Below are positions 17,453-48,688 of a stretch of DNA of 64,000 nucleotides, in pieces. Location of the stretch: NCBI GenBank assembly GCA_020850635.1, contig JADZEH010000004.1, positions 11,085-75,084 of the forward strand, in the 5' to 3' direction. The position numbers and the translations under genes are program-made. The stretch comes from Candidatus Doudnabacteria bacterium (GTDB taxonomy: Bacteria; Patescibacteriota; Doudnabacteria; UBA920). Numbering within the stretch: position 1 is the first letter of the stretch; each line of letters starts with the position of its first letter. The notes beneath the pieces were generated by a model. It saw only the letters and a list, made by a program, of their open reading frames with translations, did no database searches and was not told the DNA's origin.

Positions 17453-17487
17453 CGGGTTTCTAAGTATCCAAATTAAGACCAAAATAA

Positions 17488-17739: not shown

Positions 17740-17781
17740 AGAACAGGCGGGCGAGTTTACTCGATCCGCGACCAATAAATA

Positions 17782-22800: not shown

Positions 22801-25800
22801 TGGTATGCTCGTGAAGCTCTGCCATACCTAAACTATGCCCCACGTAAATGACGTCTTCTGTGTTTAAGTTATTCGAAGCACGTTCCGCGATCTCCAAGTT
22901 ATCGGGCTTCCCCGTAAGAACATCGAATGCCGAGGTTGCTAGAGCTGGTCCAGTCGCACGAGCTTCATCCCACCGACGACTGAAAGTACCGTTAATTTCA
23001 CTGGCTTTGTCTGTATCAATTGTATCCCATCGTTCAAGTTGGTCTGAAGTACTATTCAAAGCATACATAAAACCTCGACTTGAAATTACCACCGCATTAT
23101 AGTCATCAGCTGTAACGTCTGAATACTGGTTCAATACCAAACCAGAAGGGTTAATAATCGTTACGCCAGAGTCAGTAGCTAGCCCAATAAAGACTTTTCC
23201 ATATCCAGGGTTAGTGTTAGTCGCGGCACCTAAAGCTGTCACTGCGGATTGGGTACGAGACATGACTACCGCGTGCACATCATTAACTCGCTCCCACTCA
23301 GCTTGTGTACCAGTAGGTGAAATTTCAAGTTTAACATTACTATCAACGTTATATGTCACTGCAGAATTACGACCACTAATTCCGACACCAGCAGCGGCAC
23401 GAGAAGTTCCGTTATAATTCCACATACGATCGTTCACGAAGTCGATGGCATATAAACCACCAGCAGATGAACCGTTTGCTCCAACATAAATAACACCGTT
23501 AAGCGCTATTACCGACGATGGGTCGTTGTTTGTATCAGCACCAAGCGCATAACCATCAGAATGTTGAGAAAACTTCATCCACATGTCGTTTGTCGCCGCA
23601 TCAAAAATATATAAAGCGTCTGTGGTAACCACCAAAAGAGCTTTTCGAGGGAATGAGGCTTTATAACAACGGTCGTCACTTGAAATAACACAAGTGTCAC
23701 TCGCACTGTCATCTAGTGCTTCTGCGTACCAAGAAAGGTTGTCAGTAGTTGCCCAGTCAATCCAACGACCGCCATCACTATCTCCTGAAGTATCATAAAC
23801 AAATACATCCTTAATTCCCGTAAGCGGTGTGTGATCATCAGAACCCTTGCTGATAATCTCACCATACACCGAAGCATTTCCACGTCTTTCCTCAGACCCA
23901 ACCTGTAACAATCGTTCAGTAGCTGCGCTTGCACTAATTGACGAAGTTCCAATACCAACGCGACCATCACCGTCCACAATAAACGGTGTGGTATCACCAG
24001 AGACGTCATCAATTCTCAAAGCATAGTTACCCGTGCCAGTCGCACGGTGATCAATATATAAACCTGTGGTTGCACTTGCAGTGCCAGTATTATCAATACG
24101 CAATACCGAACCAGTATTAGCAGCATCGGAACCGCTAAGCGTCAACTTTGCCAAAGCCCCAGTAAGTGCTGTTGATGATGAAGCGATTGCTAAACCATTT
24201 CCACTAGTTAATGCATTCGCGGTTATATTTAATCCGACCTCACTATCAATAGTATTAGCGGTAACGTTAACGGCATTAGCCGCGTTTGATTGTTGAACAA
24301 TGTCGAGCCCGACAACAGCCGCGGTCGTGTTAGCTTGGTCAACTTGTACCACAAACGCGCTGTCAGTACCGGCCGAGGATGGGTTGGTGAAGACGAGAGA
24401 ATCGTCTGCTGTTGTAAGTGAGATAGTTGCGTTAGTGCCGTCGACATCAGCAGCATAAGAAGACTGTAAAGTTGAGCCACCTCCACCTGTTTCATCAGCA
24501 GCACAACCCCAACGTCCCCCACCAGTCGCCCATTTTAGAATTTGAGTATCAGCACAATCCACTAGCGAATCATGTTGAACGTAACCACTGGCATCAGTAA
24601 GGTTGACGTTCGATGATCCCGCTTGAATGACACCTGAGACATCGGCGGAGGCGAACAAAGCAGCACCAGCACCGCTTACACTCCAATGTGCATCGTTCAA
24701 AACTAAATCTGAACCAGAGCTAGCACCTACTGTAATTGTGCCGCCAGTTGAGTTTCCAATGGTAATGGTCTGAGTACGAGCGGCTGTTCCAATTAAAATA
24801 GAACCGTTACCAGAAGTTGAAGTTCCAACATCTAATGAAATATTACCAGCGGTACCAGCTGAAGCGTTGCCAGTGATAATTGTTACCCCGCCAGTTGAAG
24901 TTGTTCCAGTTCCAGAGTTAAGTGTTACCAAACCCGAAGCACCCGAACCGTTGTTAGCTGAACCGATTGTAGTCGCGGCACGTGAAGTTAAGTTTGGTCC
25001 AAAGTCTAATAAAGAAAAATTATCAGCATCAATATCTTGAGCCCATGGTGTTTGACTTCCGCCGCCACAACCCGTACAAGTTCCGGTAACTGTAAGGTTA
25101 CCGTCAAAGAAAACATCACCATCAACTTCTAAGTCATCTGTTACGAGCAAGTCATCTGCCGCACCAAGAGAGTGATTGGTTGTGCCACTGCCAAGTCTTG
25201 AGTATGTCGTCGCTGTCGCTCCACCACCTTGCAATACTCCAGAAATAGTTAACGCTCCTGTAACATTTGTATTATCTTGGAGTTCTAAAGTACCACCCGC
25301 AGAATCTAAATTAATATTTCCAGAAGTTGTAGTCTGTAGAATCAAAGCTGAACTGGTAGAGTTAATCACTCTCGATGAACCGCCCGCTCCCGCTAAATTT
25401 ATCCCTACCCCAGTTCCTGCTTGTGTCACAACTAAGGCTGCACCAGTAACGTTTGCTCCGCTTGAAACTTGTAACGCATTGTTACTTGATGACACGCTTG
25501 GTGAATAATCAATCTTCGCACCAGGATTCGTTGTGGTTCCAGGTGCGTACGCAATATCAATTCTACCATCACCAACAACGTTGTTGGCGTTAAAAGCAAA
25601 AGCAGAAGCAACAAGTTGTTTACGCGGTGACATTTCACCATCGTAAGCAACACCAGTCGGAGCGAAGTTCACCGACAAATACAAAGCACCACCAGTCACA
25701 TCAAAAGTTATTGCATTACATGTCCCAAGTTTGACATTAAAAACACCACTAGTAACGGTTGGTTTGGCACATGAACCACTTGGTTGATCATAAGTTTCTG

Positions 25801-26047
25801 TCCACAACAAACTTCCCGCCGTTGGATCATCATAAATTTTAAATTCCATGGCGTAAGTTCCATTCGCCACATTCGTACTAGTACTAACTGCTGTGAGTTT
25901 ACCTTGGAAATTAATTAGCTTTGGGAAAGCAGCGTTCGCTGTTGACTGAAATGAGTACGCTGTTACAAAACCAACCACTATCAAAAGCATGCAGGTTAGC
26001 GCTGCGACGGTTTTAATTATCTGGTTGTGGTTTATTTTTAAACTCAT
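19886..26047 (-). CDS. Giant (2053 aa) secreted tail-fibre-like surface protein
   Basis: Signal peptide (...AYSFQSTANA), Gly/Thr/Ser-rich beta-repeats including GDGRVGIGTSSISAS...LLQVG, and a concanavalin/LamG-like jelly-roll (TISLWFKHSTTAPSGAIDTLF...ITRTNANDVDSWIDGQGM). Also a GHSLG nucleophile-elbow motif (VIYVGHSLGMAELHEH), a C-terminal DLAEYYYS...GQVVVID block and a Pro/Glu-rich acidic tail. Confidence 0.8.
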   Translation of the reverse strand: MSLKINHNQIIKTVAALTCMLLIVVGFVTAYSFQSTANAAFPKLINFQGKLTAVSTSTNVANGTYAMEFKIYDDPTAGSLLWTETYDQPSGSCAKPTVTSGVFNVKLGTCNAITFDVTGGALYLSVNFAPTGVAYDGEMSPRKQLVASAFAFNANNVVGDGRIDIAYAPGTTTNPGAKIDYSPSVSSSNNALQVSSGANVTGAALVVTQAGTGVGINLAGAGGSSRVINSTSSALILQTTTSGNINLDSAGGTLELQDNTNVTGALTISGVLQGGGATATTYSRLGSGTTNHSLGAADDLLVTDDLEVDGDVFFDGNLTVTGTCTGCGGGSQTPWAQDIDADNFSLLDFGPNLTSRAATTIGSANNGSGASGLVTLNSGTGTTSTGGVTIITGNASAGTAGNISLDVGTSTSGNGSILIGTAARTQTITIGNSTGGTITVGASSGSDLVLNDAHWSVSGAGAALFASADVSGVIQAGSSNVNLTDASGYVQHDSLVDCADTQILKWATGGGRWGCAADETGGGGSTLQSSYAADVDGTNATISLTTADDSLVFTNPSSAGTDSAFVVQVDQANTTAAVVGLDIVQQSNAANAVNVTANTIDSEVGLNITANALTSGNGLAIASSSTALTGALAKLTLSGSDAANTGSVLRIDNTGTASATTGLYIDHRATGTGNYALRIDDVSGDTTPFIVDGDGRVGIGTSSISASAATERLLQVGSEERRGNASVYGEIISKGSDDHTPLTGIKDVFVYDTSGDSDGGRWIDWATTDNLSWYAEALDDSASDTCVISSDDRCYKASFPRKALLVVTTDALYIFDAATNDMWMKFSQHSDGYALGADTNNDPSSVIALNGVIYVGANGSSAGGLYAIDFVNDRMWNYNGTSRAAAGVGISGRNSAVTYNVDSNVKLEISPTGTQAEWERVNDVHAVVMSRTQSAVTALGAATNTNPGYGKVFIGLATDSGVTIINPSGLVLNQYSDVTADDYNAVVISSRGFMYALNSTSDQLERWDTIDTDKASEINGTFSRRWDEARATGPALATSAFDVLTGKPDNLEIAERASNNLNTEDVIYVGHSLGMAELHEHTTQLLGWVKYYNSTRQTPMMMLAGINDMVLPMDDTSGTQAQDVSILNTDMAINGTPTLGVDGVQGKAIQFDNTDDFLCSDANQDNTCDLDTAFNMSTVGWTISLWFKHSTTAPSGAIDTLFEKCVTATPGQAIGCVVAYMNTSGQIVVANDDDATWTRPDGGGANSYDITATSTYAYNDNQWHNLIITRTNANDVDSWIDGQGMTLSTATGLTATFDGSQIVTIGASCVTTVTANCGAVTNAWDGAIDDVQYIVGTTTQATMTQLYVRRYFNIERPRATKRTITVANATSATSTSVTDTGESWFANDFAGSILEITGSDDADCVGLTRRISANTADTITFTPAVPGACTMDTSADFEIDPEALYGGSDAVGGIGITGETPLGEARQLCIGTNSGTDTGGVTCYNHQDGPSIVADVYHSQASQTDDDGTDWAGTDYDDIVSMDLSTRTFIIASEAHFTAITEDVRLGQGLDYVANQLYAIRQEIVLDGITAVGSTGIEVGFTGGADLAEYYYSTEALEPGQVVVIDKNGDGDDVVRSTRRYSGGILGVVSTQPGIILGLHAEDGFAIALTGRIPVKFSMENGPVKAGDYLTSASIPGYAMRATGAGPTIGKALTDSIPEQDMAVCSAMGEGLPETTKCGEVSIFVEHGNFSGLPIEQLMQEMRISVSAVGDLIEDSTEGLVEESGVESQALVGTGLDNDIDDSLTTDEKILVFLRHIKAEKVAAGQGVSAELFTDRVSAAFEVISPQVTTGGLRVEAIGKLGGIIDMLSDVTFFGRPYLNNDTAGFALVKAGHTSVDIKFDKEYIEQPVVVASIAGELDNEIIKTGDVEKIKEIQKLQDDLAIELFEQGIQVLVIKKNVFGFTILLNKPAPKDVPLSWIALAVKNPKIFESEGLAEEVEDDTELNPEVLGENTASEEQEPSEGNNEPANETAPPQEETLVEEESPPVEEPAPSVEEQPEQSPPLSEESLPSSE

Positions 26048-26454: not shown

Positions 26455-26566
26455 TGAAAAATGGCGCTATCAAGCCTTATTTTTGTAAATCTCTCTTAAA
26501 AAATTCAAAACCCGCTCATTAAATTTGAACGGGCTTCCAAAATTGCTATCCGATATTTTCTATTCG

Positions 26567-27577
26567 TTACGAGCGGGTACGTTTAAGTATGAATAGAGCA
26601 ATAATTACTGCCGCTCCAAGTAGTAATCCCCCAACAAGCACGACCACGATCAAGATTGTGGTAATCAACTGCCATGGGAAGACCCAAAAGCTTAAAGCCT
26701 CTGTATAATGGCGGGCGGCATCATTGTTGACTGTAAACTGGAGAGTGGCGGTATAACGACCCAAAGCAAAATGATTCCACTGCCACTTTAAGGTTTCGAA
26801 GTAAGACAAATCATCAGGAGCATAAAAGATATCAGTGCTGTGTTGCTCTGTCCTGTCCCCTCCAGACGTAACCCAAGCCGTGGTATAACGGCGAATACTT
26901 CTTGGTAACACACTACCACCGGTACGATTAGCATCAATTACTTTACTAGTGAACCCAAATAAATTTCGGATCGTAATGTCCCCGACTGGCTTCACCCTAT
27001 CTTCACCGCTATTTTGAAAACGATATTCAAACTCAACTGGTAAAGAAGAAAACATCGACTTCTTCTTTGTTGTGTTAAAACTTAAAATTGTTTCCCCTTC
27101 TGTAAAGGCACCGTTCACTCGAAACAAAATTAAAGAACCAACCTGACTCTCAAGTGCGATGTCAACTTCTTCTTCAGAGCTTGGAACATTTTTAGTTGCC
27201 AGGATACCAGCAAAGTACCCACCTGGATCAACATCTCGTGGTACTGTAATTGTAAAATCCACCGTGAGAAATTCTTTCGGGGGAATCTCAACACTTGAAG
27301 GCGCGCTTACCCAACTTGGTAAACCATCACTCCCACGAACAAAAGATGGTTCACCAGTTTCATCTTTAGTTTCAAATTTAACAAACTTAATATAATAAGT
27401 TTGGGTTGTGGTTAATTCATTGAAAAGTTTAAACGACCCGCTCGCTTCACCACCAGGGTCAGCCGCAAGTTCAACTCGGATAGGAGATATCGTTAGAGCC
27501 TCAACCGACTGAGGCAAAAACCACCAACCGCCAAGAACAAACACTGCGCCAAATATTATACCAAGAAATCGTGTCAT
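26567..27577 (-). CDS. Secreted beta-sandwich protein with C-terminal TM anchor and basic tail (CscA/DUF916-DUF3324-like family, paralog 1)
   Basis: Signal peptide, conserved blocks RFQNSGEDRVKPVGDITIRNLFG, ILPRSIRRY..W, GRYTATL, FWVFPWQ, then TM plus KRTRS. Rho-independent-like hairpin downstream (about 26490-26540). Confidence 0.6.
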   Translation of the reverse strand: MTRFLGIIFGAVFVLGGWWFLPQSVEALTISPIRVELAADPGGEASGSFKLFNELTTTQTYYIKFVKFETKDETGEPSFVRGSDGLPSWVSAPSSVEIPPKEFLTVDFTITVPRDVDPGGYFAGILATKNVPSSEEEVDIALESQVGSLILFRVNGAFTEGETILSFNTTKKKSMFSSLPVEFEYRFQNSGEDRVKPVGDITIRNLFGFTSKVIDANRTGGSVLPRSIRRYTTAWVTSGGDRTEQHSTDIFYAPDDLSYFETLKWQWNHFALGRYTATLQFTVNNDAARHYTEALSFWVFPWQLITTILIVVVLVGGLLLGAAVIIALFILKRTRS

Positions 27578-27584
27578 AAATATA

Positions 27585-28526
27585 TTACGAATTACTATTG
27601 CGCGACAGCAACCAGCGATTGTATCGCTTGACTGCAGTATAGCCTAACAAGACCAGAAGTACGAGCACGAAAATACCGACAACAAGTCTTTGCCACGGGA
27701 CTATCCAAAAAACTGTTGTTGTACGAATTTCTAACTTTGGATTGCCATAAAACAATATAGCTGTCGCCGTATAGCGACCAAAGCGCCAGCCTGATTCCCA
27801 GGTGCTTTGGAAGTTACGTTGTGATTCTGGCAGAATAATATTTGCATCACGGTTTACTGGCACGCTGCCAACCTGACGTCCGAACATGTTCTCAATAACC
27901 ACATCGCCTTTTGGTTTGATATGAGCGTTGCCCTGGTTGAAGATTGAAGTAAAAAAATTAACGCTTGAATAATCTAAACTAGGCTCTGCACGAAAGTTTG
28001 TCACTGTTGCACTGTAATTCGCGTTACCTAATTTAGCGATGACCAACACCCCAGCTTTTTGAGTAACTGTAACCGATGTCTCTGCTAGAACCGTGGGACG
28101 GTATGAAAACAACAATCCACCATAATGAGAACCCGGCTCAGCGTCTACTGGTGGTTCAATTGCAAATTGAACTTCCGTTTGGGCGCCTGGCTCAATCGTA
28201 AAATCTGGTTGATTAATAATACGAATCCACGAGCTTAAAGAAAAACGAGGATCGCTTTCCTCTCCGCTATTTAAAAAAACAGTCTCCCCTGTTTCTCCGT
28301 TTGGCACAAAATCATTGATACTAATTTCAATTGGCAGCGGAAGATTTGTTGTATTAGTTAGTGTAATAGTATGGAGTTGCACGTCCCCTGCTTCCAGCTC
28401 AGTTTCGATTAAGAAAGGACTCAAGGCTAAGCCCTGAACCTCTAAACGTTGTTCGCTATTCTGCGCAAATAATTGCAAAGGAAAAATGAACAGAACCAAA
28501 GCCACTATTAAAGTCTTTAAGTGCAT
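27585..28526 (-). CDS. CscA/DUF916-like secreted protein with C-terminal TM anchor (paralog 2)
   Basis: Same architecture and motifs (GDVVIENMFG, ILPESQRNF..W, GRYTATA, FWIVPWQ, TM, KRYNRWLLSRNSNS). Confidence 0.6.
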   Translation of the reverse strand: MHLKTLIVALVLFIFPLQLFAQNSEQRLEVQGLALSPFLIETELEAGDVQLHTITLTNTTNLPLPIEISINDFVPNGETGETVFLNSGEESDPRFSLSSWIRIINQPDFTIEPGAQTEVQFAIEPPVDAEPGSHYGGLLFSYRPTVLAETSVTVTQKAGVLVIAKLGNANYSATVTNFRAEPSLDYSSVNFFTSIFNQGNAHIKPKGDVVIENMFGRQVGSVPVNRDANIILPESQRNFQSTWESGWRFGRYTATAILFYGNPKLEIRTTTVFWIVPWQRLVVGIFVLVLLVLLGYTAVKRYNRWLLSRNSNS

Positions 28527-28527
28527 A

Positions 28528-29616
28528 TTAGTATTGCGCTGAAGTAATGTAAGTTAAAATATTTTGATACGATCCTGACTCCTGCAAGCTCCCAATCTCA
28601 AGTTTGTAGACCAAAGTTGTAGCTTCACTTGTTGCTGGTCCTGTATTACACGCAACCTCAGATGGCGTTGTTGTGATAGCCGCATAAGTATTATTCGCCG
28701 AGAAACGATTAGTACTACCAGTGCATAGAACACTGTCTGTTGTATGATATCCAAACGCGCCAGTAGTTACCGCAACTGGCCAAACATCAGGGCTAGCGTT
28801 GGTACCAGAAACACTATCGATATCAGCACCAGCAGATGTCCTCAATTCGCCATCATGCTGAAGAGTGGTTGTATACCCACTCACACCGTTTGTGCTCACT
28901 GTAACCGTATGAGCCGCTACAGCTGGGGTACTCACAACCAAGCTCCCATAAGTAATGGCGTTACTTGTTGTAGTTATAGTTGTAGTTTCGCCAGCCACAC
29001 TTGTACTCGATGCAACTCCTGAAAACGTTATAGCCAAACTTGGGCTACTTGTACTCGCACTAGCTTCAGAAGAAAAACCTGTCTCAGTGTCTGCTCCATG
29101 ACGAGCTTTGACTTTAATTTTGTAAGTCGTACTTGGAGTTAACCCAACAATTCGTTCACCACTACCGCTTCCCCAGTTAGTAAAAGTTTGCCAGGCTTCC
29201 GTCGTGGAAACAGTATCATCTGTTTGAACATAATTGGTAGTTACAAAGTTATCAGATGAAATCGCAATAGCATACTCCGTATCACTACTGTTACCACCAA
29301 TGGCAATGACAAAATCAAGTGAGTTATACAAAGTCCCACCTGTGTTGGTTAAGGTTGGCGCTCCAGGAACTCCCGGATAGGCCGGCCAAATAAACCCGAG
29401 TAAGGAACGAAAGTTAGTTGAACTTGAACCACTATCACTTACTGCCCCAATAGAATCCACCGAGCGATAGTTAGCCGAAGCACTGTTTTCGCCACCTCCG
29501 TCAATGGTCGCATCTTCAATACGATAGTTGCTTCCAGTTAAAGTTTCAGCCAAAACTGGAGTCGCCAAAACTGAGAAGACTAAAGATAAAATTGTAATTT
29601 TTTGTATCGAGTTCAT
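28528..29616 (-). CDS. Secreted protein with FN3-like middle and a conserved about 150-aa C-terminal domain (WxL-like candidate; paralog B1)
   Basis: Signal peptide MNSIQKITILSLVFSVLATPVLA; the C-terminus ...GSYQNILTYITSAQY matches that of 30943-32034. The start is moved to the second ATG (29616) because an extended -10 (TGGTATAAT, 29634-29642) lies 3 nt from the track's first ATG (29631). Confidence 0.55.
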   Translation of the reverse strand: MNSIQKITILSLVFSVLATPVLAETLTGSNYRIEDATIDGGGENSASANYRSVDSIGAVSDSGSSSTNFRSLLGFIWPAYPGVPGAPTLTNTGGTLYNSLDFVIAIGGNSSDTEYAIAISSDNFVTTNYVQTDDTVSTTEAWQTFTNWGSGSGERIVGLTPSTTYKIKVKARHGADTETGFSSEASASTSSPSLAITFSGVASSTSVAGETTTITTTSNAITYGSLVVSTPAVAAHTVTVSTNGVSGYTTTLQHDGELRTSAGADIDSVSGTNASPDVWPVAVTTGAFGYHTTDSVLCTGSTNRFSANNTYAAITTTPSEVACNTGPATSEATTLVYKLEIGSLQESGSYQNILTYITSAQY

Positions 29617-29633
29617 ATGGTTTTTATACATTC

Positions 29634-29642
29634 ATTATACCA
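29634..29642 (-). promoter_or_regulatory. Extended -10 element TGGTATAAT(GAAT) upstream of B1
   Basis: Reverse complement of 29634-29642 is TGGTATAAT. The same TGnTATAATGAAT occurs upstream of the CAP gene (39625-39633). Confidence 0.4.
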
Positions 29643-29656
29643 TATAGCCTAAGTTA

Positions 29657-29728
29657 GCAGGTGGTTGATGTTGTACTAAAACCAGTCGCTCCGCTCCGAT
29701 GGTTTTCTTAACAACATCAACCACCTGC
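29657..29728. repeat. 72-nt perfect-stem hairpin element (copy 1): 18-bp outer stem GCAGGTGGTTGATGTTGT/ACAACATCAACCACCTGC enclosing a conserved core with inner stem AAAACCA/TGGTTTT and loop GTCGCTCCGCTCCGA
   Basis: A 49-nt core is identical to the reverse complement of 39701-39749. The outer stems differ between copies yet each pairs perfectly. Confidence 0.6.
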
Positions 29729-29843
29729 ACCAATAGGCATTCAAAGGTAAAGACGATTCCCTTGTTGTTAAGAAAAGTATTTGGTCCCCTCTACTTTTCG
29801 TACAATAAGGGAATCGGATTTATCAAAAAAACCGCCCGGTTTC

Positions 29844-30920
29844 TTAGAGCGGTTCTTTGTCTTTCTTAGTTCGTCTTTTTTTAGGAGATTTGTTATTAGT
29901 CGCCTGATTGATAATGTAACGGTTGTATCGCTTAATACTGAAACGTCCAACAATAAAGGCGACAATTAATCCTGAAATTACAACAGTTATCAATTGCCAT
30001 GGAATGACGTAGAACGTGTAGCTTTTTGAGTCCGACTTTAATTCTTTGGTTCCAAAGACAACACTTAGCGATGCTTTGTATTTTCCAAAAGCAAAATTGT
30101 GCCATTGATACTTTACTTGATCCCAAAATCCAGGACCCGCTGGGCTTGGAATTTCCGGATCGGCTCCCTGTTGCAAGTCTCCCCAGCTACTAGCCCAAAC
30201 AGTTTCAAAACGCCTAATGCTTTTTGGCAAAATACTTCCATCAACAGGGTTGGCTGGCAGAATCTTTGTCGTACGTCCGAACATGTTCGTAATCAAAACA
30301 TCACCAACTGGTCTTAAATGATCTTCACCAACATTTTGAAAACGATAGTAAAAATAAACCGGGAGAGCTGTAAAAAAACGCTTTTTGTCTTTAGTCGCAA
30401 ATTCTAAGATATTAGCGTTTTGAACAAAATCACCATTTACTCGAAGTAACAACAGGGTTCCTAACTTTGAACTAATGCCCACCTGACCACCCTGGTCAGC
30501 ATTGGGAGGGGTTGTTTCTAAAAACATCGCAGCGAAATGACCACCAGGGTCAGCGTTCTCCGGCACATTAACTTTAATAGGAATTTCCAAAGTCTCACCA
30601 GGGCCAATAGTAATGACTTCCGCAACTTCAACCCAAACCGCTAAATCTTCTTTACGATTTGTAAACCGAGGACTACCACTTTCATCCTGAGATTCGAAAT
30701 TTTGTAAATTAGTATAAAAAGTTCGAGATTGTTTTTCCTCATTACTAATTTTCAAAATTTCAGTTACCGACTCTCCAGGATTAGCGTTAATTTCTATTCT
30801 GGGGGTTGTGGTTATGGCTTGTACGGGTCGGACAAAAGCCCCAAAAATTAAAACGAAAACCGCTCCGACAAGTAACGCGGCGCGGCTATATCTTAATTTG
30901 AAAATTTCTGGAAAATTCAT
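29844..30920 (-). CDS. CscA/DUF916-like secreted protein with C-terminal TM anchor and Lys-rich tail (paralog 3)
   Basis: Motifs RFQNVGEDHLRPVGDVLITNMFG, ILPKSIRRFETVW, GKYKASL, FYVIPWQ, TM, then KRYNRYIINQATNNKSPKKRRTKKDKEPL. Confidence 0.6.
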   Translation of the reverse strand: MNFPEIFKLRYSRAALLVGAVFVLIFGAFVRPVQAITTTPRIEINANPGESVTEILKISNEEKQSRTFYTNLQNFESQDESGSPRFTNRKEDLAVWVEVAEVITIGPGETLEIPIKVNVPENADPGGHFAAMFLETTPPNADQGGQVGISSKLGTLLLLRVNGDFVQNANILEFATKDKKRFFTALPVYFYYRFQNVGEDHLRPVGDVLITNMFGRTTKILPANPVDGSILPKSIRRFETVWASSWGDLQQGADPEIPSPAGPGFWDQVKYQWHNFAFGKYKASLSVVFGTKELKSDSKSYTFYVIPWQLITVVISGLIVAFIVGRFSIKRYNRYIINQATNNKSPKKRRTKKDKEPL

Positions 30921-30942
30921 TTAGTAAACAATCCCAAACAAT

Positions 30943-32034
30943 TTAAAATGTACCTGTGGCGATGTATGTGATGTTCGTACTATAACTACCAGCCTCTGTG
31001 TTTCCCGCGATGTTGGCGAGATAAAAAGCACTTACAGTTTCAGTATTAGTTGGTGTTGTTCGTGAAATAATCGTCGTGGTCGTGCCAGCAACAAAGGCCC
31101 AATCTCGGTTTCCTGGTGTAGAGTTGTGATCATAACCAGTTGCCACGGTAGAAGAGCCATTCGTGGAAATACCTAAACCAAACTCTTCTGCAGACTGAGT
31201 ACCATCAGCATCGTTAGTAATAGCGGCAACATCAATAGTATTACCACCACTGGTTAAAGTGGCTCCATTGTAACTTAGGACATACCCACTAGCGGCGTTA
31301 GTAGCAACAGCTAAAGTATGAGCGGCGGCAGAGTCTGTACCAGAACCATTAGTATCACCAGTAGCAAATCGGGCTGCTGTTGAACTAAGTGAGCCAAACC
31401 CGATTGTTGTATCAGAAACGCTAAAGGTAATTGTAGGGTCAACTGTAGCTGTAACGTTAACCTGATCTTCTGTAATAATATCTACAGCAATTGTCCCTGT
31501 GTCACCAAAGCTACCACTAATGGCAATCGTATCGTCATCATCAATTGCGCCATTACTAATTTGGTTTGTGCCAGTTGCCTGACTTACAGCATTTGTACCA
31601 ATACGGAAACGGACGCAACGCCCAGCCGTGACTGTACCAGTACCTGAAGTTAGAGTTACAGTTGTTGCGCTGTCCCCATCTGCTCCCCAAGTCGCACCAG
31701 AGGGAGAAGCGGCCAAAGTTCTTTCTGTAAATGATGCTGTACTACAGTTACTTGAGTCACCTTCAGCAAAGTCAATATCAGTATGAACTATATTGGTAAC
31801 GTTTGTGAAGTCAGCTGAAAAAGTTAAAATAATAGTTTGACCCGCGGTTAATCCGGTAGGTGTGACAAACTTGATTTCATGATTAGCTGCCTCGCTCGCC
31901 TTTAAACGAGACATGACGTCAGATAAACTTGTCACTGAAGCGGCTTGTGCAACAGGTACTCCCTGAAAAACAACGCTAGCAACCAATGCCACCATCGCAA
32001 TCTTACTATATATACGCTTCGTTTTTTGTTTCAT
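30943..32034 (-). CDS. Secreted protein sharing the C-terminal domain of 28528-29616 (WxL-like candidate; paralog B2)
   Basis: Signal peptide ...VPVAQA; the C-terminal block AHTLAVATNAASGY...AGSYSTNITYIATGTF aligns with AHTVTVSTNGVSGY...SGSYQNILTYITSAQY of B1. Confidence 0.55.
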   Translation of the reverse strand: MKQKTKRIYSKIAMVALVASVVFQGVPVAQAASVTSLSDVMSRLKASEAANHEIKFVTPTGLTAGQTIILTFSADFTNVTNIVHTDIDFAEGDSSNCSTASFTERTLAASPSGATWGADGDSATTVTLTSGTGTVTAGRCVRFRIGTNAVSQATGTNQISNGAIDDDDTIAISGSFGDTGTIAVDIITEDQVNVTATVDPTITFSVSDTTIGFGSLSSTAARFATGDTNGSGTDSAAAHTLAVATNAASGYVLSYNGATLTSGGNTIDVAAITNDADGTQSAEEFGLGISTNGSSTVATGYDHNSTPGNRDWAFVAGTTTTIISRTTPTNTETVSAFYLANIAGNTEAGSYSTNITYIATGTF

Positions 32035-32060: not shown

Positions 32061-32090
32061 ATTATAGCAGATTTTTTGACTTTTGTCTAA
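32061..32090 (-). promoter_or_regulatory. Promoter for the B2-A3 pair: TTAGACA-N17/18-TGCTATAAT (minus strand)
   Basis: Reverse complement reads TTAGACAaaagtcaaaaaatctgcTATAAT, 27 nt upstream of the 32034 start. Confidence 0.45.
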
Positions 32091-32105: not shown

Positions 32106-35100
32106 TTACTCCACCAAGCTAACTTCAGTTCCAGATTCTACTGAATCTTGAACCTCGGGTTCTTCTTGGGTTTCCTCTGGTTCAGTAACAGGCATTTGTT
32201 CATCGGGAGATTCTTCGCTTACAACGCCGGCAACAGACCCTTCGTCAATTACTGGTTCCGGGTCCTCTGATAATGAATCCGATTCTGACGACTGCTGTCC
32301 AGCAATAACTAACTTGATAGTGCTAGTATTACCATTTGACACAGTCAGTTTTGCATCCTGTCCTGCAAACGCATGCCAGTTAAATTCAACTGCTTCGTTT
32401 TGATCGTCGCTAATCTTAATGGTAAAGCCAGATGAGTCTTCATCAACCACCGTGTAGCGGAAACTATTATCCAATGCGGCTTCACCACGAGGACTAATCG
32501 TGACGATTGGCTGATACTCATACGGCTTAGTAAAGTTTACTCTCACCTCTGTTTCCCCAGAAAGAATTTTTACCTGACCTACTGAGTCTGAGGTTAAATA
32601 CAAATGACCCTTGATGACAATCGGTGTATCAATGTTTCCACCTAAATTGCCTTGTAAACTATTTACTGAAACTTGTAAGCTCTCAATTCTGTCTTGTTGT
32701 TCGTGAATCGCATTAACTAAGATCGGAGTGAAACCAACATAGTTCACAGATTTTAATCCAGTCTTTGGATCAATCTTAACTAGCTCAGGTGAAATCACTT
32801 CAACCTCTTGTGCCAGAAAACCAATTCTCAAAGCATCATCAGTTTGAGACTTCCAACGGAAATTAACCCCCCTAAAATTAAGAACTTTCTCTAAGGCACT
32901 TTCAATTGTTGCTACATCCTCTTTAAGACGTTGGTCAGAGGTACACACCAAAGCGGTACTCGTTGGATCAATATCGCATGACCCATCAGAATCAGTAAAA
33001 CGAGCCACCACACCTGCCGCACCCAACACCACATGAAGCGGATAACTAGGAGTGGTTATGCCGATACCGACATTTCCCGCGCTAAATATTGCAGCATAAT
33101 TATCTGTACCACCTGAAGCACTTACAGACAAACCCACATTGACTGCAGTAGTTCCCGTATGTGTATTAGCGACTTGAAGACCATATGTGGTTTGGCTCGC
33201 GCCATTATTGGAACCCGAGGTAGCAATATTTAAGACCGTTTGATTAGTTAAAGCCTTGGAGGTACCAGAAATTTGTAAGTCAACTAGCTTGCCAGAAGTT
33301 AAGTTGGATGACGCAGCATACAATCCAGTACCAGTGGTTAAAGAGTTAACATTTAGTGCTAAGGCAGAAGCGGTTGTAACTTGAGTCGTATTTGCAGAAG
33401 TAACCGACATTGTTCCTGAACTTTGAATATATCCCTTGACCGCAGCAATTGCACCAGAGGAGTTGACTTGGAATAAGTCACCACTTCCAACGGTCAGCAA
33501 CGCGGTAGGTGAAGCATCTCCAATCCCGACATTGCCACCCATAAACTGAGCAGCGTAATTATTTGTCGCACCGGTTTGAGCGTTTACAGTTAGACCAAAA
33601 CTATTAGTTGCTGTCGAAACAGCACCGGCTGAAATCAAAATACCATGGGTATTCGTAATAGTTGCGTTCGTACTTTTGACTGGAGCACCTGTTATTCCTA
33701 AAGTCGCCGCGTTGGTTAATGTGGAAGCTCCGTTAAATGCATAAGTCGGTGCATTGATTAATACTGCGCGTTGTGTCGCTAAGCTACCAGTACTAAAAGT
33801 TACAGTTCTGTTGAGTGCAAAATTTATATCCGCGGCTTCGATTGTAGAATCTAAGTTAACATGTGCTGGCCCTGTAACGGCGAGTAAATTTGGGGAGCCA
33901 GAACCAGATGGATCGGGGGCCATAATTAATCCGCCAGTTTCGTTGACAGTAGCCAAAGCAGAACCGCCTGAATTTTGCCACTCCTGCAAATTTGCCGACT
34001 GACCACCACTTGAAGCCGATACAGCAATATTATATTTGTCAGACAAATACTTTTCTACGGATTCTTTGTCGGCAATACTTAACGCTGAGCTATAGACTAT
34101 AATTTCCGCGATATCTCCCTCCCAATATTGTGATACTCCTAAGTAGTGATAAGTATCCCCAATCCAATTAAAAGAACTATTTGCAGTTCCCACGATTGTT
34201 ATAATACTATAAGTATTTGCCGGTTTTTGAATATTAAGAACTGAGGTATAAGTACCATTTGTATAACCCTGACCACTAGCAATGTCGCCGTTTGTACCTC
34301 CTAATGAATTAATCAAATCAGTACCAGTTTCACCAAAATAATCAAAACCGGTGCTCTCTCCAACTGGTGACTCCCCAGCAGGCGAACTCCCATCAACATG
34401 TCTGATTACCATTATCAGAGTCCTAGAATTAGTCACTACTGAATCCATAGCCAAAAAATCATCGGTACCATCGAAGCGAACCACAGGCTTGCCGTTAGTT
34501 CCACTAGCAATATAAAGAGGCTGACTTGCTCCAGTTCCTTGAGTAGCATCATTACCCGACCCGCTTGAATTAGTCCAGCTTGCAACAGGGTCATTATTAT
34601 TTAAAGACAAACTATCAGCCTTTAACCACACCACTAAACCACTGATATCATCAGGTTCAATTCCACTACCTAAAGGCGAACCTTTAACAATTATGCCTTT
34701 AGTATTCGCTGTGCCTGTTACAACTTTCAGCCTTGCATCAGGTATGGTAGTGCCTATACCCACGCTTCCATTTTCAAAGATGGCAGCATAGTTATTAGTT
34801 CCACCTGAAGCAGAAGCATATAAACCGACATTAGTTGAGTCTGTCCCTGTATGAGTATTAGTAATATATCCACTGTAAGTTGTTTGGGTGGAAGTAGCAT
34901 TGGCTCCAGATAAACTAAGAGATAAAAGTTTTTGTGTGTTGCTTGCAGCAGCGGTTGTGTTGGCTGATAAAGCTAAACCTGTCCCACCTGCTAAAGTGTC
35001 CCAGGCCCAATTCTGCTGATAATTGGTATTATCAATAGAATTTGTTGCTGTGGCGGCAGTCAACCCTGACAACGAGCCACCGCCTACACCGTCACAAGCC

Positions 35101-37670
35101 TGCCATTCGAAATCGCCAGTAGTTGATTCGTAAGTTAAACATTCTTCATCAACAGAAGAGTCCACTGCTTTTAAATCTGCTTCAGTAACTTTCTCATCAA
35201 CAATCGCGGTGGCTCCAGTACTATCAATCACAATATCTCCACTCATTGCTACGGGATTATAGTTTGTACCATCCGCCACTAGAATAAATCCAGAGGTATT
35301 TGTGCCCATAAATAAATCATCGCCCGAAATAGTAAGATCGCCATCTAGTTGGACGTTACCAACACTGGTGATAAGAACGCGTTCCGTACCAGCCATACTA
35401 ATAGATAAATCATCTGATCCACCAAGCACAGCAATCTGCACTTTCTCAACACCAGCCTTATAAATGTAATACCCAGCTTGTGAAGCAGCGTCTCCATCAA
35501 CCTGAATTAATGCATGCCCAGCAGCATTAGTGTACGACATACCTACTGCCGCGGTTCCCACAACGCTCAGACCTGCAAAAGTTGGCAATGAAGTCGTTGT
35601 TAAATTTTGTCCTGTATTAAAAGTTAATTGCGAATCGCTAATCGAGTCGGCAGCAACAGAAATGCTAACAGCAGCGGTTTCTGATCCTGAACCACTTACA
35701 GAAATCTGGCTGTCGCCAGCAATAGTCGCAACATAGTTGCCAGCAGTATCAGTACCCAGCGCTACACTATTGGATTGAATCGTAGTTGCACCAGTATTAT
35801 CGATTGCAATATCACCAGACACCGACACAAACACAGGAACGCCACTGACATTACCAATAAGCAACTGTCCGCTCGTTGGCGCAGCCGTTACCTGCACTGC
35901 CGAAGTTCCATTCCCGTAAACCAAACCATTTAAAGAGAGAGACGACGTTCCTGTTCCACCATTCGAAACAGCAAGTACACCAGTCACATCGGTAGCTAAG
36001 TTAGTTGTACCACCACCAATAGCTCCCCAAGTTGCACCGTTATAGACATTAAATGCATCTGTTGTTGAGTTGTATACTAAAAGACCTGTCGCTGGGCTAC
36101 TAATCGCATCGCGTTCGACAGTCGTCATCCGTGGTGCTAAAAACCCACGTGTGGTTGAATTTGCTTGTAAGATTGCAGAAGCATCCAAAGTGCCTTCACC
36201 AATGAGCAGTTCACTTGAATCAAAACTACTACCTGAGGATACCGAGCTTGAACCAGCAGCACCACGTGCTCCCGTTTCACCAGTTGCCCCCTGTGGACCT
36301 TGTTCGCCCGTGTCCCCTTTGTCACCTTCTAAAAAGTCGAAAAGACCTAAGGCAATAAATCGATTCATCACTCTTGTTACTGCAGTCTCAATAGCACTTT
36401 CACCAAAGTTTACTGTTGTTGTCGGGGTCGGTGGTGTTATTGGTGTTGAGACAATAGGAACTTCTTCTGGCACGTAGACTATCGTAGGTGTTGGCTCTGG
36501 CTCAGAGCAAACAACTAACCAACACAAAACTTTCTCCCACCAAGGAATTTCGGTACTCTCTCCCAAAACACGACCACTATATTGGCCAGTCTCCGCGTTT
36601 GCTATTTTTGTTTGTGCTGAAAAATCATCAACTGTTAATTGAGGAGAAAATCTGTCTTGTAAATATTTACCATTAGTAGAAAAATTTTCAAGCAAGGGAC
36701 TCTGTAGCATGGCAACAGTTACATTGTCTGCTTTTTTAGCCACGATCTCAGCCAGCATCAAAGTCTTGTTAAACAATGTACTTGCACTGACTGCTACACT
36801 ACTATCAACACTCGCAACTATAAACTGACCTTCATTAAATATTTGATTAACAGAAACAGTAACTCTATCTTGCGAAGATACAAGATCATTTACAACAAAA
36901 TTTGCTAAAACAATATCAGCGTTATCGAGTATGTTATTACTAAATTTTTTAACATCTTCTATTGTCACCTTTGGCACACTCACTGTTGGAACAATATTAT
37001 CAAAAGCACGATGATTCTCTAAACTTTGACTAGCAAGGGTTTGCCCTGTAGTTATAAACTGGACAGACCCTGAGAACTGAGCGAGGACCTTGCCATCACT
37101 AACCCAAGTTGCGACTACCGAATCAACAATTCCAGCAACACGATCAAACGCTCCACTAATACTATTTGGTAAATTGCCAATATCGACCAATACCTGCTCA
37201 TACGACAGCTTGATCAAACTTCCTAAAGTTGAACTATTACTCCCTACTTCGGAAACTAATTCTTGTGAATATTGTTTGGAGTATTTCTTTGTGTTCCGGA
37301 TACCGATTGAAGCATGATCAGCAACGAACTGTTCTGCCTTTGATGTTATATCCTGTGCATCATAATAAAGATTTGCAAATTTTCGCTCATGCCACTCACT
37401 AAATTTAGTGAAGGTTACATAGCCTTCATAAATTGATTCTAGAATAAACTTGCTAGTTTTCGCATCGTAATAATTTAGAAATGCCGAGGTGTCTCCAATT
37501 ATGCCATAGGCTTGATTTTGCCAAGAAGAAACTATTGTCCCTGAATTATTAATTGAGGAATACTCTATATTGGATGGTTGGCTGGCGTATACTCTGTTTG
37601 AACTTAGTGACGCACATAATATAACAACAACCAAGAGGCTATAGACAAGTTTATTTATAACTTTCATCAT
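32106..37670 (-). CDS. Giant (1854 aa) secreted phage-tail-fibre-like protein: collagen-like GXY run, tail-fibre repeats, LamG-like domain, C-terminal S74-type intramolecular chaperone domain, acidic tail
   Basis: Signal peptide ...SSNRVYA; GDKGDTGEQGPQGATGETGARGAAG (collagen triplets); repeats GSVGIGTTIPDARLKVV / GNVGIGDASPTALLTVG / GNVGIGITTPSYPLHVV. LamG-like region LVVWLKADSL...YWEGDIAEIIVYSSAL; endosialidase-chaperone motif SDQRLKEDV...RIGFLAQEVEVISPELV. Confidence 0.85.
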   Translation of the reverse strand: MMKVINKLVYSLLVVVILCASLSSNRVYASQPSNIEYSSINNSGTIVSSWQNQAYGIIGDTSAFLNYYDAKTSKFILESIYEGYVTFTKFSEWHERKFANLYYDAQDITSKAEQFVADHASIGIRNTKKYSKQYSQELVSEVGSNSSTLGSLIKLSYEQVLVDIGNLPNSISGAFDRVAGIVDSVVATWVSDGKVLAQFSGSVQFITTGQTLASQSLENHRAFDNIVPTVSVPKVTIEDVKKFSNNILDNADIVLANFVVNDLVSSQDRVTVSVNQIFNEGQFIVASVDSSVAVSASTLFNKTLMLAEIVAKKADNVTVAMLQSPLLENFSTNGKYLQDRFSPQLTVDDFSAQTKIANAETGQYSGRVLGESTEIPWWEKVLCWLVVCSEPEPTPTIVYVPEEVPIVSTPITPPTPTTTVNFGESAIETAVTRVMNRFIALGLFDFLEGDKGDTGEQGPQGATGETGARGAAGSSSVSSGSSFDSSELLIGEGTLDASAILQANSTTRGFLAPRMTTVERDAISSPATGLLVYNSTTDAFNVYNGATWGAIGGGTTNLATDVTGVLAVSNGGTGTSSLSLNGLVYGNGTSAVQVTAAPTSGQLLIGNVSGVPVFVSVSGDIAIDNTGATTIQSNSVALGTDTAGNYVATIAGDSQISVSGSGSETAAVSISVAADSISDSQLTFNTGQNLTTTSLPTFAGLSVVGTAAVGMSYTNAAGHALIQVDGDAASQAGYYIYKAGVEKVQIAVLGGSDDLSISMAGTERVLITSVGNVQLDGDLTISGDDLFMGTNTSGFILVADGTNYNPVAMSGDIVIDSTGATAIVDEKVTEADLKAVDSSVDEECLTYESTTGDFEWQACDGVGGGSLSGLTAATATNSIDNTNYQQNWAWDTLAGGTGLALSANTTAAASNTQKLLSLSLSGANATSTQTTYSGYITNTHTGTDSTNVGLYASASGGTNNYAAIFENGSVGIGTTIPDARLKVVTGTANTKGIIVKGSPLGSGIEPDDISGLVVWLKADSLSLNNNDPVASWTNSSGSGNDATQGTGASQPLYIASGTNGKPVVRFDGTDDFLAMDSVVTNSRTLIMVIRHVDGSSPAGESPVGESTGFDYFGETGTDLINSLGGTNGDIASGQGYTNGTYTSVLNIQKPANTYSIITIVGTANSSFNWIGDTYHYLGVSQYWEGDIAEIIVYSSALSIADKESVEKYLSDKYNIAVSASSGGQSANLQEWQNSGGSALATVNETGGLIMAPDPSGSGSPNLLAVTGPAHVNLDSTIEAADINFALNRTVTFSTGSLATQRAVLINAPTYAFNGASTLTNAATLGITGAPVKSTNATITNTHGILISAGAVSTATNSFGLTVNAQTGATNNYAAQFMGGNVGIGDASPTALLTVGSGDLFQVNSSGAIAAVKGYIQSSGTMSVTSANTTQVTTASALALNVNSLTTGTGLYAASSNLTSGKLVDLQISGTSKALTNQTVLNIATSGSNNGASQTTYGLQVANTHTGTTAVNVGLSVSASGGTDNYAAIFSAGNVGIGITTPSYPLHVVLGAAGVVARFTDSDGSCDIDPTSTALVCTSDQRLKEDVATIESALEKVLNFRGVNFRWKSQTDDALRIGFLAQEVEVISPELVKIDPKTGLKSVNYVGFTPILVNAIHEQQDRIESLQVSVNSLQGNLGGNIDTPIVIKGHLYLTSDSVGQVKILSGETEVRVNFTKPYEYQPIVTISPRGEAALDNSFRYTVVDEDSSGFTIKISDDQNEAVEFNWHAFAGQDAKLTVSNGNTSTIKLVIAGQQSSESDSLSEDPEPVIDEGSVAGVVSEESPDEQMPVTEPEETQEEPEVQDSVESGTEVSLVE

Positions 37671-47232: not shown

Positions 47233-48688
<1,456 letters not shown>

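Follow-up and report, generated by a model that had tools for sequence, protein, structure and literature searches.

Five genes between two giant neighbours

The window (the whole stretch of DNA that was analysed, 64,000 nucleotides) carries a five-gene cluster at 26567–32034, consisting of three A genes and two B genes, all on the minus strand and all present where the original prediction had placed them. In the direction of reading, the cluster begins with B2 (30943–32034; 363 aa), a Pam-type pilin, and A3 (29844–30920; 358 aa), a membrane-anchored protein with two Ig-like domains. Beyond a spacer lie B1 (28528–29631; 367 aa), a probable second Pam-family subunit, A2 (27585–28526; 313 aa), a membrane-anchored two-Ig-domain paralogue, and A1 (26567–27577; 336 aa), the third membrane-anchored paralogue. 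The predicted order, B2-A3, hairpins with a −10 box, B1-A2-A1 and a terminator-like hairpin, agrees with the sequence, and the setting outside Firmicutes was borne out by the 100% identity between A3 and a protein encoded in a Candidatus Doudnabacteria (CPR) MAG.

The A3–B1 spacer (29632–29843, minus strand) contains three hairpins, the first terminator-like and the third long, with a perfect 18-bp stem (29657–29728), and then the −10 box TGgTATAAT, which ends 3 nt ahead of the annotated B1 ATG. Its predicted fold has an MFE of −85.9 kcal/mol over 212 nt, and the arms of the long hairpin are unique within the window. The same spacer is found, identical, in the closest relative (locus L001) and is absent from the other relatives, which have spacers of 0–99 nt. 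Consensus scans, the only source for these two sites, placed a terminator-like hairpin after A1 (26507–26537, minus strand; a 12-bp stem followed by a T-run) and a promoter-like site upstream of B2 (32061–32089, minus strand; TAGACA-17-TATAAT with a TG extension, 11/12 matches).

As predicted, the cluster adjoins a giant fibre gene; it sits between two giants, and giant genes flank it in the closest relatives too. On the B2 side, the minus-strand gene at 32106–37670 encodes an 1854-aa fibre protein with a collagen-like run, for which the collagen match is weak, and a Peptidase_S74 intramolecular chaperone domain (Pfam PF13884, E 1.4e-14, residues 1578–1632). On the A1 side, the minus-strand gene at 19886–26047 encodes a 2053-aa surface protein with a LamG-like domain and has its own consensus promoter-like site (26454–26426). 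The promoter- and terminator-like sites between the genes, known from consensus scans only, suggest that the giants belong to separate transcription units. Relaxed searches with pilin-family HMMs gave nothing significant: a whole-protein E of 3 for the 1854-aa protein, with a best single domain of 0.016 in the signal-peptide region, and a whole-protein E of 3 with a best single domain of 0.021 for the 2053-aa protein. We regard both giants, which are devoid of a detectable pilin-type module, as neighbours of the cluster and not as demonstrated members of a pilus, and the proposal that the fibres are docked or presented by a non-covalent complex found no support.

The B proteins and the Pam pilin family

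The first description of Pam pili, in 2026, came from one cultured Saccharimonadia parasite (Troman et al., bioRxiv 10.64898/2026.03.03.709456). Seven components were named for the Pam system of M. amalyticus, including the pilins PamA and PamB, of a family that forms filaments, PamT, and the chaperones PamC and PamD; the pilins were placed mainly in Saccharimonadia and Microgenomatia, with Doudnabacteria unmentioned (bioRxiv 10.64898/2026.03.03.709456). A Pam pilin consists of a signal peptide, an N-terminal beta-sandwich, a single linker strand and, at the C-terminus, an incomplete Ig-like domain; its best-conserved parts are the linker and the groove (bioRxiv 10.64898/2026.03.03.709456).

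B2 matched the NCBIfam model NF058581 (CPR_Pam_pilin_C) with 71.3 bits and E 8.7e-20, residues 225–363 aligning to model positions 8–148 of 148, and the model was matched by 59/59 members of the B2 family. By the curated cut-off of this model (55 bits), B2 is a Pam pilus pilin. Its signal peptide and domain order fit those of the Pam pilins: the signal peptide is followed by a predicted N-terminal beta-sandwich, a putative linker or donor strand at about 187–218 and a C-terminal pilin domain (219–363) that ends in an aromatic residue. Conservation peaks in the linker and over the final 25 residues (0.77 versus 0.66–0.67 elsewhere). The protein contains 2 Cys.

The two B proteins were predicted to be secreted and to share a paralogous C-terminal region, and both points stand. 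In either protein the signal segment is the sole hydrophobic segment, and their C-terminal regions are homologous by BLASTP (E 5e-6 over 139 aa) and by profile alignment with hhalign (97.4%, E 1.1e-11, 218 columns), for which the reversed control gave P 0.2. In B1, the signal peptide precedes a conserved, unstructured, PamT-like N-terminal region with an NY-motif (29–90), an FN3 domain (about 91–195), a linker and a pilin-type C-domain (236–367). FN3 matches dominated both fold searches for the B C-domain made with B1. No NCBIfam match was obtained for B1 itself; its orthologues scored 9.5–25 bits against NF058581, below the cut-off of 55, and 35–48 bits against the PamT equivalog model NF058579 over model positions of about 3–83 only, compared with a cut-off of 240.

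PamT resembles B1 in its N-terminal region and pilin C-domain; it has a single truncated Ig-like domain and no linker, whereas B1 has both a linker and an FN3 domain that PamT lacks. With its orthologues scoring far under 240 bits, the extra FN3 domain and a likeness located at the N-terminus, assignment of B1 as a PamT equivalog was rejected. Most likely, B2 would be the main shaft subunit and B1 a minor, tip or adaptor subunit.

The original prediction took the B C-terminus to be a divergent WxL domain, and this was not established. Pfam WxL (PF13731) matched neither B1 nor B2 (E<=1) and 0/59 members of the B2 family (E<=0.1), and no WxL structures were among the PDB sequence matches of B. 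An hhalign comparison of the B C-domain with WxL was colinear through three motif blocks, with P 0.007–0.03 and a probability of 2–7%, and unrelated control pairs scored equally well; because Pfam gave no match and the hhalign result lies within control background, the WxL call is unproven. Like the B proteins, WxL proteins (CscB/CscC) are small, secreted and encoded beside a WxLIP-type gene, and their C-terminal strand GxYxxT(L/I)T(W/Y)x(L/I) aligns colinearly with B, although the similarity is not significant. The WxL domain is a C-terminal domain of about 160–200 aa with two Trp-x-Leu motifs, whereas B has Tyr/Phe at both, and the Pro-rich linker of WxL proteins is lacking in B.

The A proteins, their relatives and their place beside pilin genes

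A1, A2 and A3 align over their full length with 27–39% identity and 52 invariant columns, and each of the predicted motif blocks (RFQNxGE.., ILPxSxRxF, GxYxAxL and FxVxPWQ) appears in the alignment. The predicted layout is likewise found in each protein, namely a hydrophobic signal segment at the N-terminus and a single TM segment at the C-terminal end with a basic tail (KRTRS in A1), with a body of two Ig-like domains; domain 2 of A2 lacks the insert of about 30 aa.

The claim that the A proteins are of the DUF916/DUF3324 (CscA) type held at the level of superfamily homology and failed at the level of Pfam families. None of the three reached the gathering score of 27.3 bits for Pfam WxLIP_PGBD (PF06030, DUF916): A2 scored highest (25.6 bits, E 1.4e-5), followed by A3 (15.4 bits) and A1 (13.8 bits), compared with 100–142 bits for true WxLIPs. 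Across the A family, 25/75 members matched PF06030 at E<=0.01, the best with E 1.4e-5. PF11797 (DUF3324, HBD) matched neither A1–A3 (E<=1) nor any of the 75 A-family members (E<=0.01). By contrast, hhalign of the A family against WxLIP gave E 2e-11 over both domains with clean controls, the WxLIP HBD aligning to A domain 2 (up to residue 244 in A3 and 256 in WxLIP). This profile homology shows the A proteins to be distant relatives of the WxLIP/CscA proteins of lactobacilli, enterococci and Listeria.

Both groups have a signal peptide and a C-terminal TM segment. WxLIP/CscA proteins (PDB 9i1y, 9i25) come from Lactobacillales and Listeria, whereas the A proteins come from a CPR bacterium; the N-terminal NQIDKxxxYFDLK motif is not kept as such in the A proteins; and WxLIP/CscA genes cluster with at least two WxL proteins, whereas the A genes cluster with two B genes in which a WxL domain is not demonstrable. 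What WxLIP does is a matter of continuing debate, and the structure of a WxL–WxLIP complex was recently deposited (PDB 9i25).

The chaperones of chaperone-usher systems (PapD, FimC, CfaA, CsuC, SafB and EcpB) resemble the A proteins at the fold level only. They are soluble and periplasmic and work with an usher and an outer membrane, whereas the A proteins are membrane-anchored and have neither. Pfam PapD_N (PF00345) and PapD_C (PF02753) had no match in the 75 A-family members, chaperone-usher chaperones were absent from the PDB sequence matches of A, and no usher-like gene was seen among the neighbouring genes examined.

The A proteins are best read as PamC/PamD-like membrane-anchored chaperones. 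They share the architecture described for PamC and PamD of M. amalyticus (WP_260763277.1 and WP_260763284.1), having a signal peptide, a PapD/FimC-like two-domain fold, a C-terminal TM helix and a location in a pilin operon; this likeness is drawn from the description, and none of the NCBIfam Pam models matches the A family.

Gene order was examined in 79 related loci, taken from the 290 stretches of species-representative genomes that gave a match, and the A–B synteny is strict and position-specific. An A gene lies directly downstream of the B2-type gene in 72/72 loci, an A2-type protein comes next after B1 in 27/27 loci, and an A1-type protein is the second gene after B1 in 10/12; the A1 copy occurs only in some relatives. 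The minimal conserved unit, one A with the pilin(s), accounts for 49/79 loci. Such compact loci, often with a large protein ending in a pilin module ahead of the unit, occur in genomes labelled Doudna-, Nomura-, Paceibacterota, Falkow-, Magasanik-, Gracili- and Kaiserbacteria.

A pilus model, its alternatives and their implications

We consider it probable that the cluster is a CPR Pam-type donor-strand pilus operon. B2, and probably B1, would be exported by Sec as pilus subunits, and the incomplete C-terminal Ig-like domain of each subunit would be completed by a beta-strand, the conserved linker, donated by its neighbour. A3, A2 and A1 would sit in the cytoplasmic membrane through their C-terminal helix as dedicated chaperones, A3 covering the open groove of B2 and A2, perhaps also A1, that of B1, and each would pass its cognate subunit to the growing filament by donor-strand exchange, with no usher and no outer membrane. 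A1 may be an extra chaperone, or possibly a membrane anchor or terminator. The cluster has gene clustering, a tail-fibre-like neighbour and a CPR host in common with the Pam system, for which a conserved neighbour of this kind was noted (bioRxiv 10.64898/2026.03.03.709456). It is compact, with 5 genes and three paralogues of the putative chaperone compared with seven components in M. amalyticus. Neither a PamR-like anchor nor PamE was recognised, and ATP synthase genes were absent from the approximately 20 annotated neighbours in the window.

Such a chaperone-assisted donor-strand pilus accounts for the parts better than a fibre-docking complex. It is unlikely that the cluster instead encodes a WxL/Csc-type non-covalent surface complex without a filament. 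In this reading the A proteins, as WxLIPs, would anchor and stabilise B on the wall through a WxL-like C-domain, and the complex might serve to display adhesive domains or the fibres encoded next to it. The remote homology of A to WxLIP over both domains fits such a complex, as do the common layout of CPR and WxL loci, each with a large module-ended protein, a small module protein and a membrane-anchored two-Ig protein, and the weak colinearity of the B C-domain with WxL at both WxL positions (Y or F in CPR), a W-to-Y change being seen also in an L. plantarum cluster protein. However, B had no WxL match in Pfam or the PDB and its hhalign probability of 2–7% lay within control background, B2 reaches the curated threshold of a pilin family that forms filaments in M. 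amalyticus, and the giants in the window carry neither a pilin nor a WxL-type module. Strand insertion may also occur in WxL complexes, and in this respect the two readings are partly compatible.

That the A proteins serve as chaperones or tethers of the 1854-aa and 2053-aa fibres, with B as adaptors, seems distinctly improbable. The giants flank the cluster here and in the closest relatives, there are three A proteins against only two B, and the preprint records a conserved tail-fibre-like neighbour (bioRxiv 10.64898/2026.03.03.709456); yet the minimal unit in 49/79 loci is one A with the pilin(s), and many of these loci have no separate giant gene free of the pilin module. The long proteins that are linked to such units carry a pilin module, which the giants of the window do not, the 1854-aa fibre has its own S74 chaperone domain, and the sites predicted by consensus scans only would separate the giants' transcription units. 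Mere co-occurrence of two unrelated secreted Ig-like families is scarcely credible in view of the adjacency in 72/72 loci and its position-specific pairing, the score of B2 above the curated threshold, and the A–WxLIP alignment at E 2e-11 with clean controls.

The homology of A with WxLIP is the less expected result. A link between Pam chaperones and WxLIP was not found in the Pam preprint (bioRxiv 10.64898/2026.03.03.709456) or in the literature searched, and it is apparently new to the literature. We tentatively propose, as a possibility that we hold with reserve, that the Pam pilus and the WxL/Csc clusters of Lactobacillales and Listeria are branches of one ancient envelope system free of an outer membrane, in which WxLIP and the Pam chaperones share an ancestor and the WxL domain and the Pam pilin C-domain are one strand-accepting module. 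Common ancestry is demonstrated here for the A family; the shared module is the conjectural half. If the proposal is true, WxLIP would act in assembly as a membrane-anchored chaperone, not as an adhesin that binds the host, and WxL proteins might dock or polymerise by donor-strand complementation instead of simply binding peptidoglycan. The link thus offers the WxLIP field the testable hypothesis of an assembly chaperone, and the Pam field that of descent from a widespread monoderm surface-display system. The compact version of Pam, pilin(s) with a cognate membrane-anchored chaperone, would extend to several further CPR groups, and this distribution supports the view that it serves these episymbionts generally for attachment to their hosts.

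Protein families encoded by the gene cluster

Five minus-strand ORFs were located at exactly the positions claimed in the original prediction, encoding B2 (363 aa, 30943–32034), A3 (358 aa, 29844–30920), B1 (367 aa, 28528–29631), A2 (313 aa, 27585–28526), and A1 (336 aa, 26567–27577). The predicted paralogy of A1–A3 was borne out by end-to-end alignment, which gave 27–39% identity with 52 invariant columns and contained every motif block quoted for them, and hydropathy scans revealed the expected signal-like N-terminal segment, single C-terminal transmembrane (TM) segment, and basic tail in each protein. In B1 and B2, the same scan found the signal segment as the sole hydrophobic segment, and each protein contains two Cys. 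The proposed relatedness of the B1 and B2 C-termini was likewise confirmed by BLASTP (E 5e-6 over 139 aa) and by hhalign comparison of the two family profiles (97.4%, E 1.1e-11, 218 columns; reversed control P 0.2). A3 matches a hypothetical protein from a Candidatus Doudnabacteria MAG with 100% identity, and the context of the cluster is therefore non-Firmicutes, as had been noted; NCBI taxonomy places the lineage among the bacterial candidate phyla, in the phylum Candidatus Doudnaibacteriota.

B2 matched the NCBIfam model NF058581 ("CPR_Pam_pilin_C, Pam pilus system pilin subunit") over residues 225–363 with 71.3 bits, above the curated cut-off of 55 bits; the 59 aligned B2-family homologues all matched the model as well. 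This model and the PamT model NF058579 derive from a 2026 preprint on the Pam pilus system of CPR bacteria (Troman et al., bioRxiv 10.64898/2026.03.03.709456). Conservation in the B2 family peaks in the linker (residues 187–218) and the last 25 residues (0.77, compared with 0.66–0.67 elsewhere), and the same pattern of linker and C-terminal end was reported for PamA and PamB (10.64898/2026.03.03.709456). These sequence matches identify B2 as a Pam-family pilin.

B1 itself matched no NCBIfam model. Among its 68 orthologues, 58 matched NF058579 (best E 3e-13) and 29 matched NF058581, all below cut-off, with the PamT match covering the N-terminal ~80 residues and the pilin match the entire C-terminal domain. 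The AF2 model of B1 (pLDDT 81.5) comprises a signal peptide, an unstructured NY-motif region (residues 29–76), an FN3 domain, and a beta-rich C-terminal domain; B1 is a paralogue of B2 in which the N-terminus is PamT-like and an FN3 domain is inserted. The mature N-terminus (residues 29–90, window ~29362–29547, minus strand), which is the part matching the N-terminus of the PamT model, contains three NY/NF motifs (SNYRIED.., SANYRSVDS.., and STNFRSLLGF) and several residues invariant across the 68 orthologues. Despite this conservation, pLDDT falls below 50 in residues 29–76, and the region probably becomes ordered only once a partner is bound, for instance by serving as a donated strand or as a segment that binds a chaperone.

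Relationship to WxL and WxLIP proteins

The AF2 model of A3, built from a 75-sequence alignment (pLDDT 90.9), shows an N-terminal signal helix, two beta-sandwich domains, and a C-terminal helix (residues 308–344), and PapD-like/MSP-type domains ranked first among its fold matches. NCBIfam contained no model matching the A family. Pfam gave only sub-threshold matches, to WxLIP_PGBD in 25 of 75 members (A2, 25.6 bits against a cut-off of 27.3) and to fn3_5 in 32 of 75, the latter a weak match that is also present in true WxLIPs; no member matched WxLIP_HBD or PapD (0/75). When all 177,635 distinct PDB sequences were searched at E ≤ 10, the 75-sequence A profile retrieved EfmWxLIP1 only (9i25_C and 9i1y_A; E 0.08) and no chaperone-usher chaperone, and searches with a single sequence or a 3-sequence profile returned nothing meaningful.

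For direct comparison, we assembled a WxLIP reference set of ten genes annotated "DUF916 and DUF3324 domain-containing", together with neighboring WxL genes, from plasmid-collection records of Enterococcus, Listeria, Lactococcus, Latilactobacillus, and Lactiplantibacillus; sampled members were confirmed by Pfam as true WxLIP (PF06030+PF11797) and WxL (PF13731). The A family aligned with the WxLIP profile by hhalign at 97.3% (E 2.4e-11, 197 columns), beginning at the first strand of domain 1 and reaching into domain 2 (A3 43–244, WxLIP 48–256), with a score of 87 compared with 18–30 (P 0.004–0.15) for reversed-profile and cross-family controls. This match, set against the low controls, indicates that the A proteins, which are membrane-anchored two-Ig-domain proteins with a chaperone-like fold, are remote homologues of WxLIP/CscA, though Pfam would annotate none of them so. 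The predicted CscA/DUF916 type thus holds as superfamily-level homology and not as a Pfam assignment.

Because the partner A proteins are homologous to WxLIP, a WxL identity of the B C-domain is more plausible a priori. By eye, the three WxL blocks GPLSIDxxSxLxFG, VQVTDxRGxNxGWxLxV, and AxxYxTTLTWxL match, in the same order, DPTITFSVSDTTIGFG, HTLAVATNAASGYVLSY, and AGSYSTNITYIA of the B protein, with Tyr/Phe in place of the WxL Trp. Neither B1 nor B2 gave an informative Pfam match, WxL being absent even at E ≤ 1, and searches of the PDB with the B profiles did not match the WxL chain of 9i25, whereas the WxL profile matched it with E 7.6e-6. Comparison of B with WxL by hhalign gave probabilities of 7% and 27% for full-length profiles, the 27% being a spurious match in the FN3 region, and P 0.013–0.027 for trimmed domains; a diverse 150-sequence CPR alignment compared with a cleaned WxL alignment gave P 0.007 over 143 colinear columns (reversed controls P 0.28–0.4). 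Unrelated profile pairs in the control set reached P 0.004–0.03, and the similarity, marginal in all four set-ups, was rejected as evidence of homology. The proposal that the B C-domain is a divergent WxL domain with Tyr replacing Trp is thus matched by blocks colinear by eye and, judged on sequence, is unproven.

A csc-type cluster on a Lactiplantibacillus plantarum plasmid (record L086) encodes a "cell surface protein" (L086:3707–4294), flanked by an LPXTG protein on one side and a true WxLIP on the other, with GY.I and DY.I at the positions of WxL GW.L and TW.L and a sub-threshold score of 17.5 bits on Pfam WxL. Trp-to-Tyr WxL variants therefore occur in Firmicutes clusters and escape annotation.

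Flanking genes and other features of the window

The cluster is bracketed by genes for two giant proteins, one of 1854 aa (32106–37670, minus strand) and one of 2053 aa with a LamG-like domain. The 1854-aa fibre protein carries a short collagen-like GXY run (~449–475) and a Peptidase_S74 intramolecular chaperone domain (E 1.4e-14) at residues 1578–1632, which is not C-terminal, ~220 residues lying beyond it. An 83-aa excisionase/HTH-like ORF (37667–37918, minus strand) overlaps the start of the 1854-aa gene by 4 nt and may encode its regulator. A consensus scan, which reports sequence matches only, found a promoter-like site upstream of B2, a terminator-like hairpin downstream of A1, and, preceding the gene for the 2053-aa protein, a perfect TTGACA-17-TATAAT.

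The 212-nt spacer between A3 and B1 (29632–29843, minus strand) is an unusually long structured element with three predicted hairpins (MFE −85.9 kcal/mol), including a perfect 18-bp stem (arms 29657–29674 and 29711–29728). An extended −10 box, TGgTATAAT (within 29616–29645, minus strand), ends 3 nt before the annotated ATG of B1, so that B1 is translated either from an mRNA with little or no leader or from the second Met as its real start (residue 6, MNSIQK...). The spacer element is identical base for base in the closest relative (L001), where its flanks differ, and is absent from the other relatives, whose spacers measure 0–99 nt and often contain one small hairpin. A repeat or mobile element was considered for the hairpin and rejected; the arms occur once in the window, and L001, the sole relative carrying the element, shows no covariation.

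Genes for a type IV pilus are grouped on the minus strand, comprising PilC (10030–11235), PilT (11251–12321), PilB (12715–14499), a GspM/PilO-like protein (14795–15412), and PilM (16024–17037), near genes for a Wzy_C/O-antigen-ligase and TPR protein (7005–9017) and a sugar transferase (4114–5424). This set and the Pam-type cluster are separated by a few kb, so two different filament systems would lie side by side. A 103-aa RRM-type RNA-binding protein (39834–40145, minus strand) scored 99.9 bits on NCBIfam NF058537 ("RNA-binding regulator"; cut-off 100). The large-type FGAR amidotransferase PurL (1380 aa, 42975–47117, minus strand; GATase_5 E 2e-99 with FGAR-AT domains in addition), which stands alone as a purine-synthesis gene and is unusual for a CPR genome, looks horizontally acquired; its stretch has a GC content of 0.50–0.55, compared with ~0.40 in the rest of the window, and directly adjoins the 16S rRNA gene (47233–48695, minus strand; Rfam). 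No 23S rRNA was detected anywhere in the window at Rfam gathering thresholds, and the tRNA-Ile(GAT)/tRNA-Ala(TGC) pair, whose usual place is the rRNA spacer, stands alone ~30 kb from the 16S gene on the opposite strand (17376–17857, plus strand), which makes this an unlinked rRNA operon.

Related loci and a Pam-type pilus model

Relatives of A were found in 290 stretches of species-representative genomes, and 79 loci were fetched, with genes called using HMMs from three in-house alignments. The loci are labelled Doudna-, Nomura-, Falkow-, Magasanik-, Gracili-, and Kaiserbacteria, Paceibacterota, and Patescibacteria, but the automatic titles of several records are plainly unreliable for taxonomy; two matches were on short contigs (2.5–2.7 kb) in non-CPR bins. 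A B2-type gene lies directly upstream of the first A gene in 72 of the 72 loci with enough upstream sequence (median gap 27 bp), and B1 is also present in 30/79 loci, in the order b2-A-b1-A(-A). The A paralogues keep their positions, A3-type following b2 (66/66 loci), A2-type following b1 (27/27), and A1-type being the extra copy (10/12); across genomes, the pairing of A with B is strict and specific. In at least 20 loci, a protein of 478–2021 aa whose last ~165 residues are the Pam-pilin linker and C-domain is encoded ahead of the pilin (for example L025:2767–8832, L067:345–5753, L021:4412–8827, and L057:3709–7662). These proteins have a two-part tip adhesin layout and are candidate giant tip adhesins, whose incorporation could proceed by donor-strand exchange; an analogous layout in WxL clusters combines a WxLIP with a small WxL protein and a large one that has WxL at its end.

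By cryo-EM, PamA and PamB were identified in filaments of the CPR parasite Ca. Mycosynbacter amalyticus, and the pam operon also encodes PamT (tip), PamE, PamR, and the FimC/PapD-like chaperones PamC and PamD, which have a C-terminal TM helix unusual for such chaperones; a tail-fibre-like gene is a conserved neighbor (10.64898/2026.03.03.709456). The PamA/PamB structures given in its supplement (25PZ and 25QA) were not among the PDB matches listed. PamR is TM-anchored and two-domain like A1, which differs in having no extra N-terminal strand. The present lineage is unmentioned in the preprint, and its operon differs in being compact, with an FN3 domain in one subunit and three chaperone paralogues.

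Considered as a whole, the cluster is probably a Pam-type pilus operon with A chaperones and B subunits. A WxL-like surface complex that does not polymerize is unlikely; it would be partly compatible with a pilus, as a DUF916 strand has been predicted to insert into WxL (Hassan et al., PMC10599100), but the resemblance of the B C-domain to WxL lies within the range of unrelated pairs. It is more improbable still that the cluster supplies assembly factors for the flanking fibres, since neither window giant gave a significant pilin-module match in a relaxed search (whole-protein E 3; best single-domain E 0.016–0.021), a result that leaves docking or presentation of such fibres unsupported. Mere co-occurrence of A and B is hardly credible given their strict and position-specific pairing in the related loci. 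Overall, the original prediction was right on A at superfamily level, unproven on B, and unsupported on fibre docking.

In the Pam-type model, the B subunit would be exported by Sec, after which the open groove of its C-domain would be capped by the cognate A protein. As has been proposed for PamC/PamD, no usher would be needed for the next step, in which donor-strand exchange would release the subunit onto the filament growing at the membrane. B2 would form the shaft and B1 a minor, tip, or adaptor subunit, while A1 may be a third chaperone or a membrane anchor/terminator.

The homology to WxLIP was established for the A proteins encoded here, which resemble PamC and PamD in their described architecture. 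WxL, DUF916, and DUF3324 are unmentioned in the preprint text (10.64898/2026.03.03.709456), literature searches on WxL with donor strand, WxL with Patescibacteria, and WxLIP structure found nothing relevant, and no published statement relating Pam-type chaperones to WxLIP was found in either source. The cluster probably belongs to the already described Pam pilus system, and the link between Pam-type chaperones and WxLIP appears, from the literature searched, to be previously unreported.
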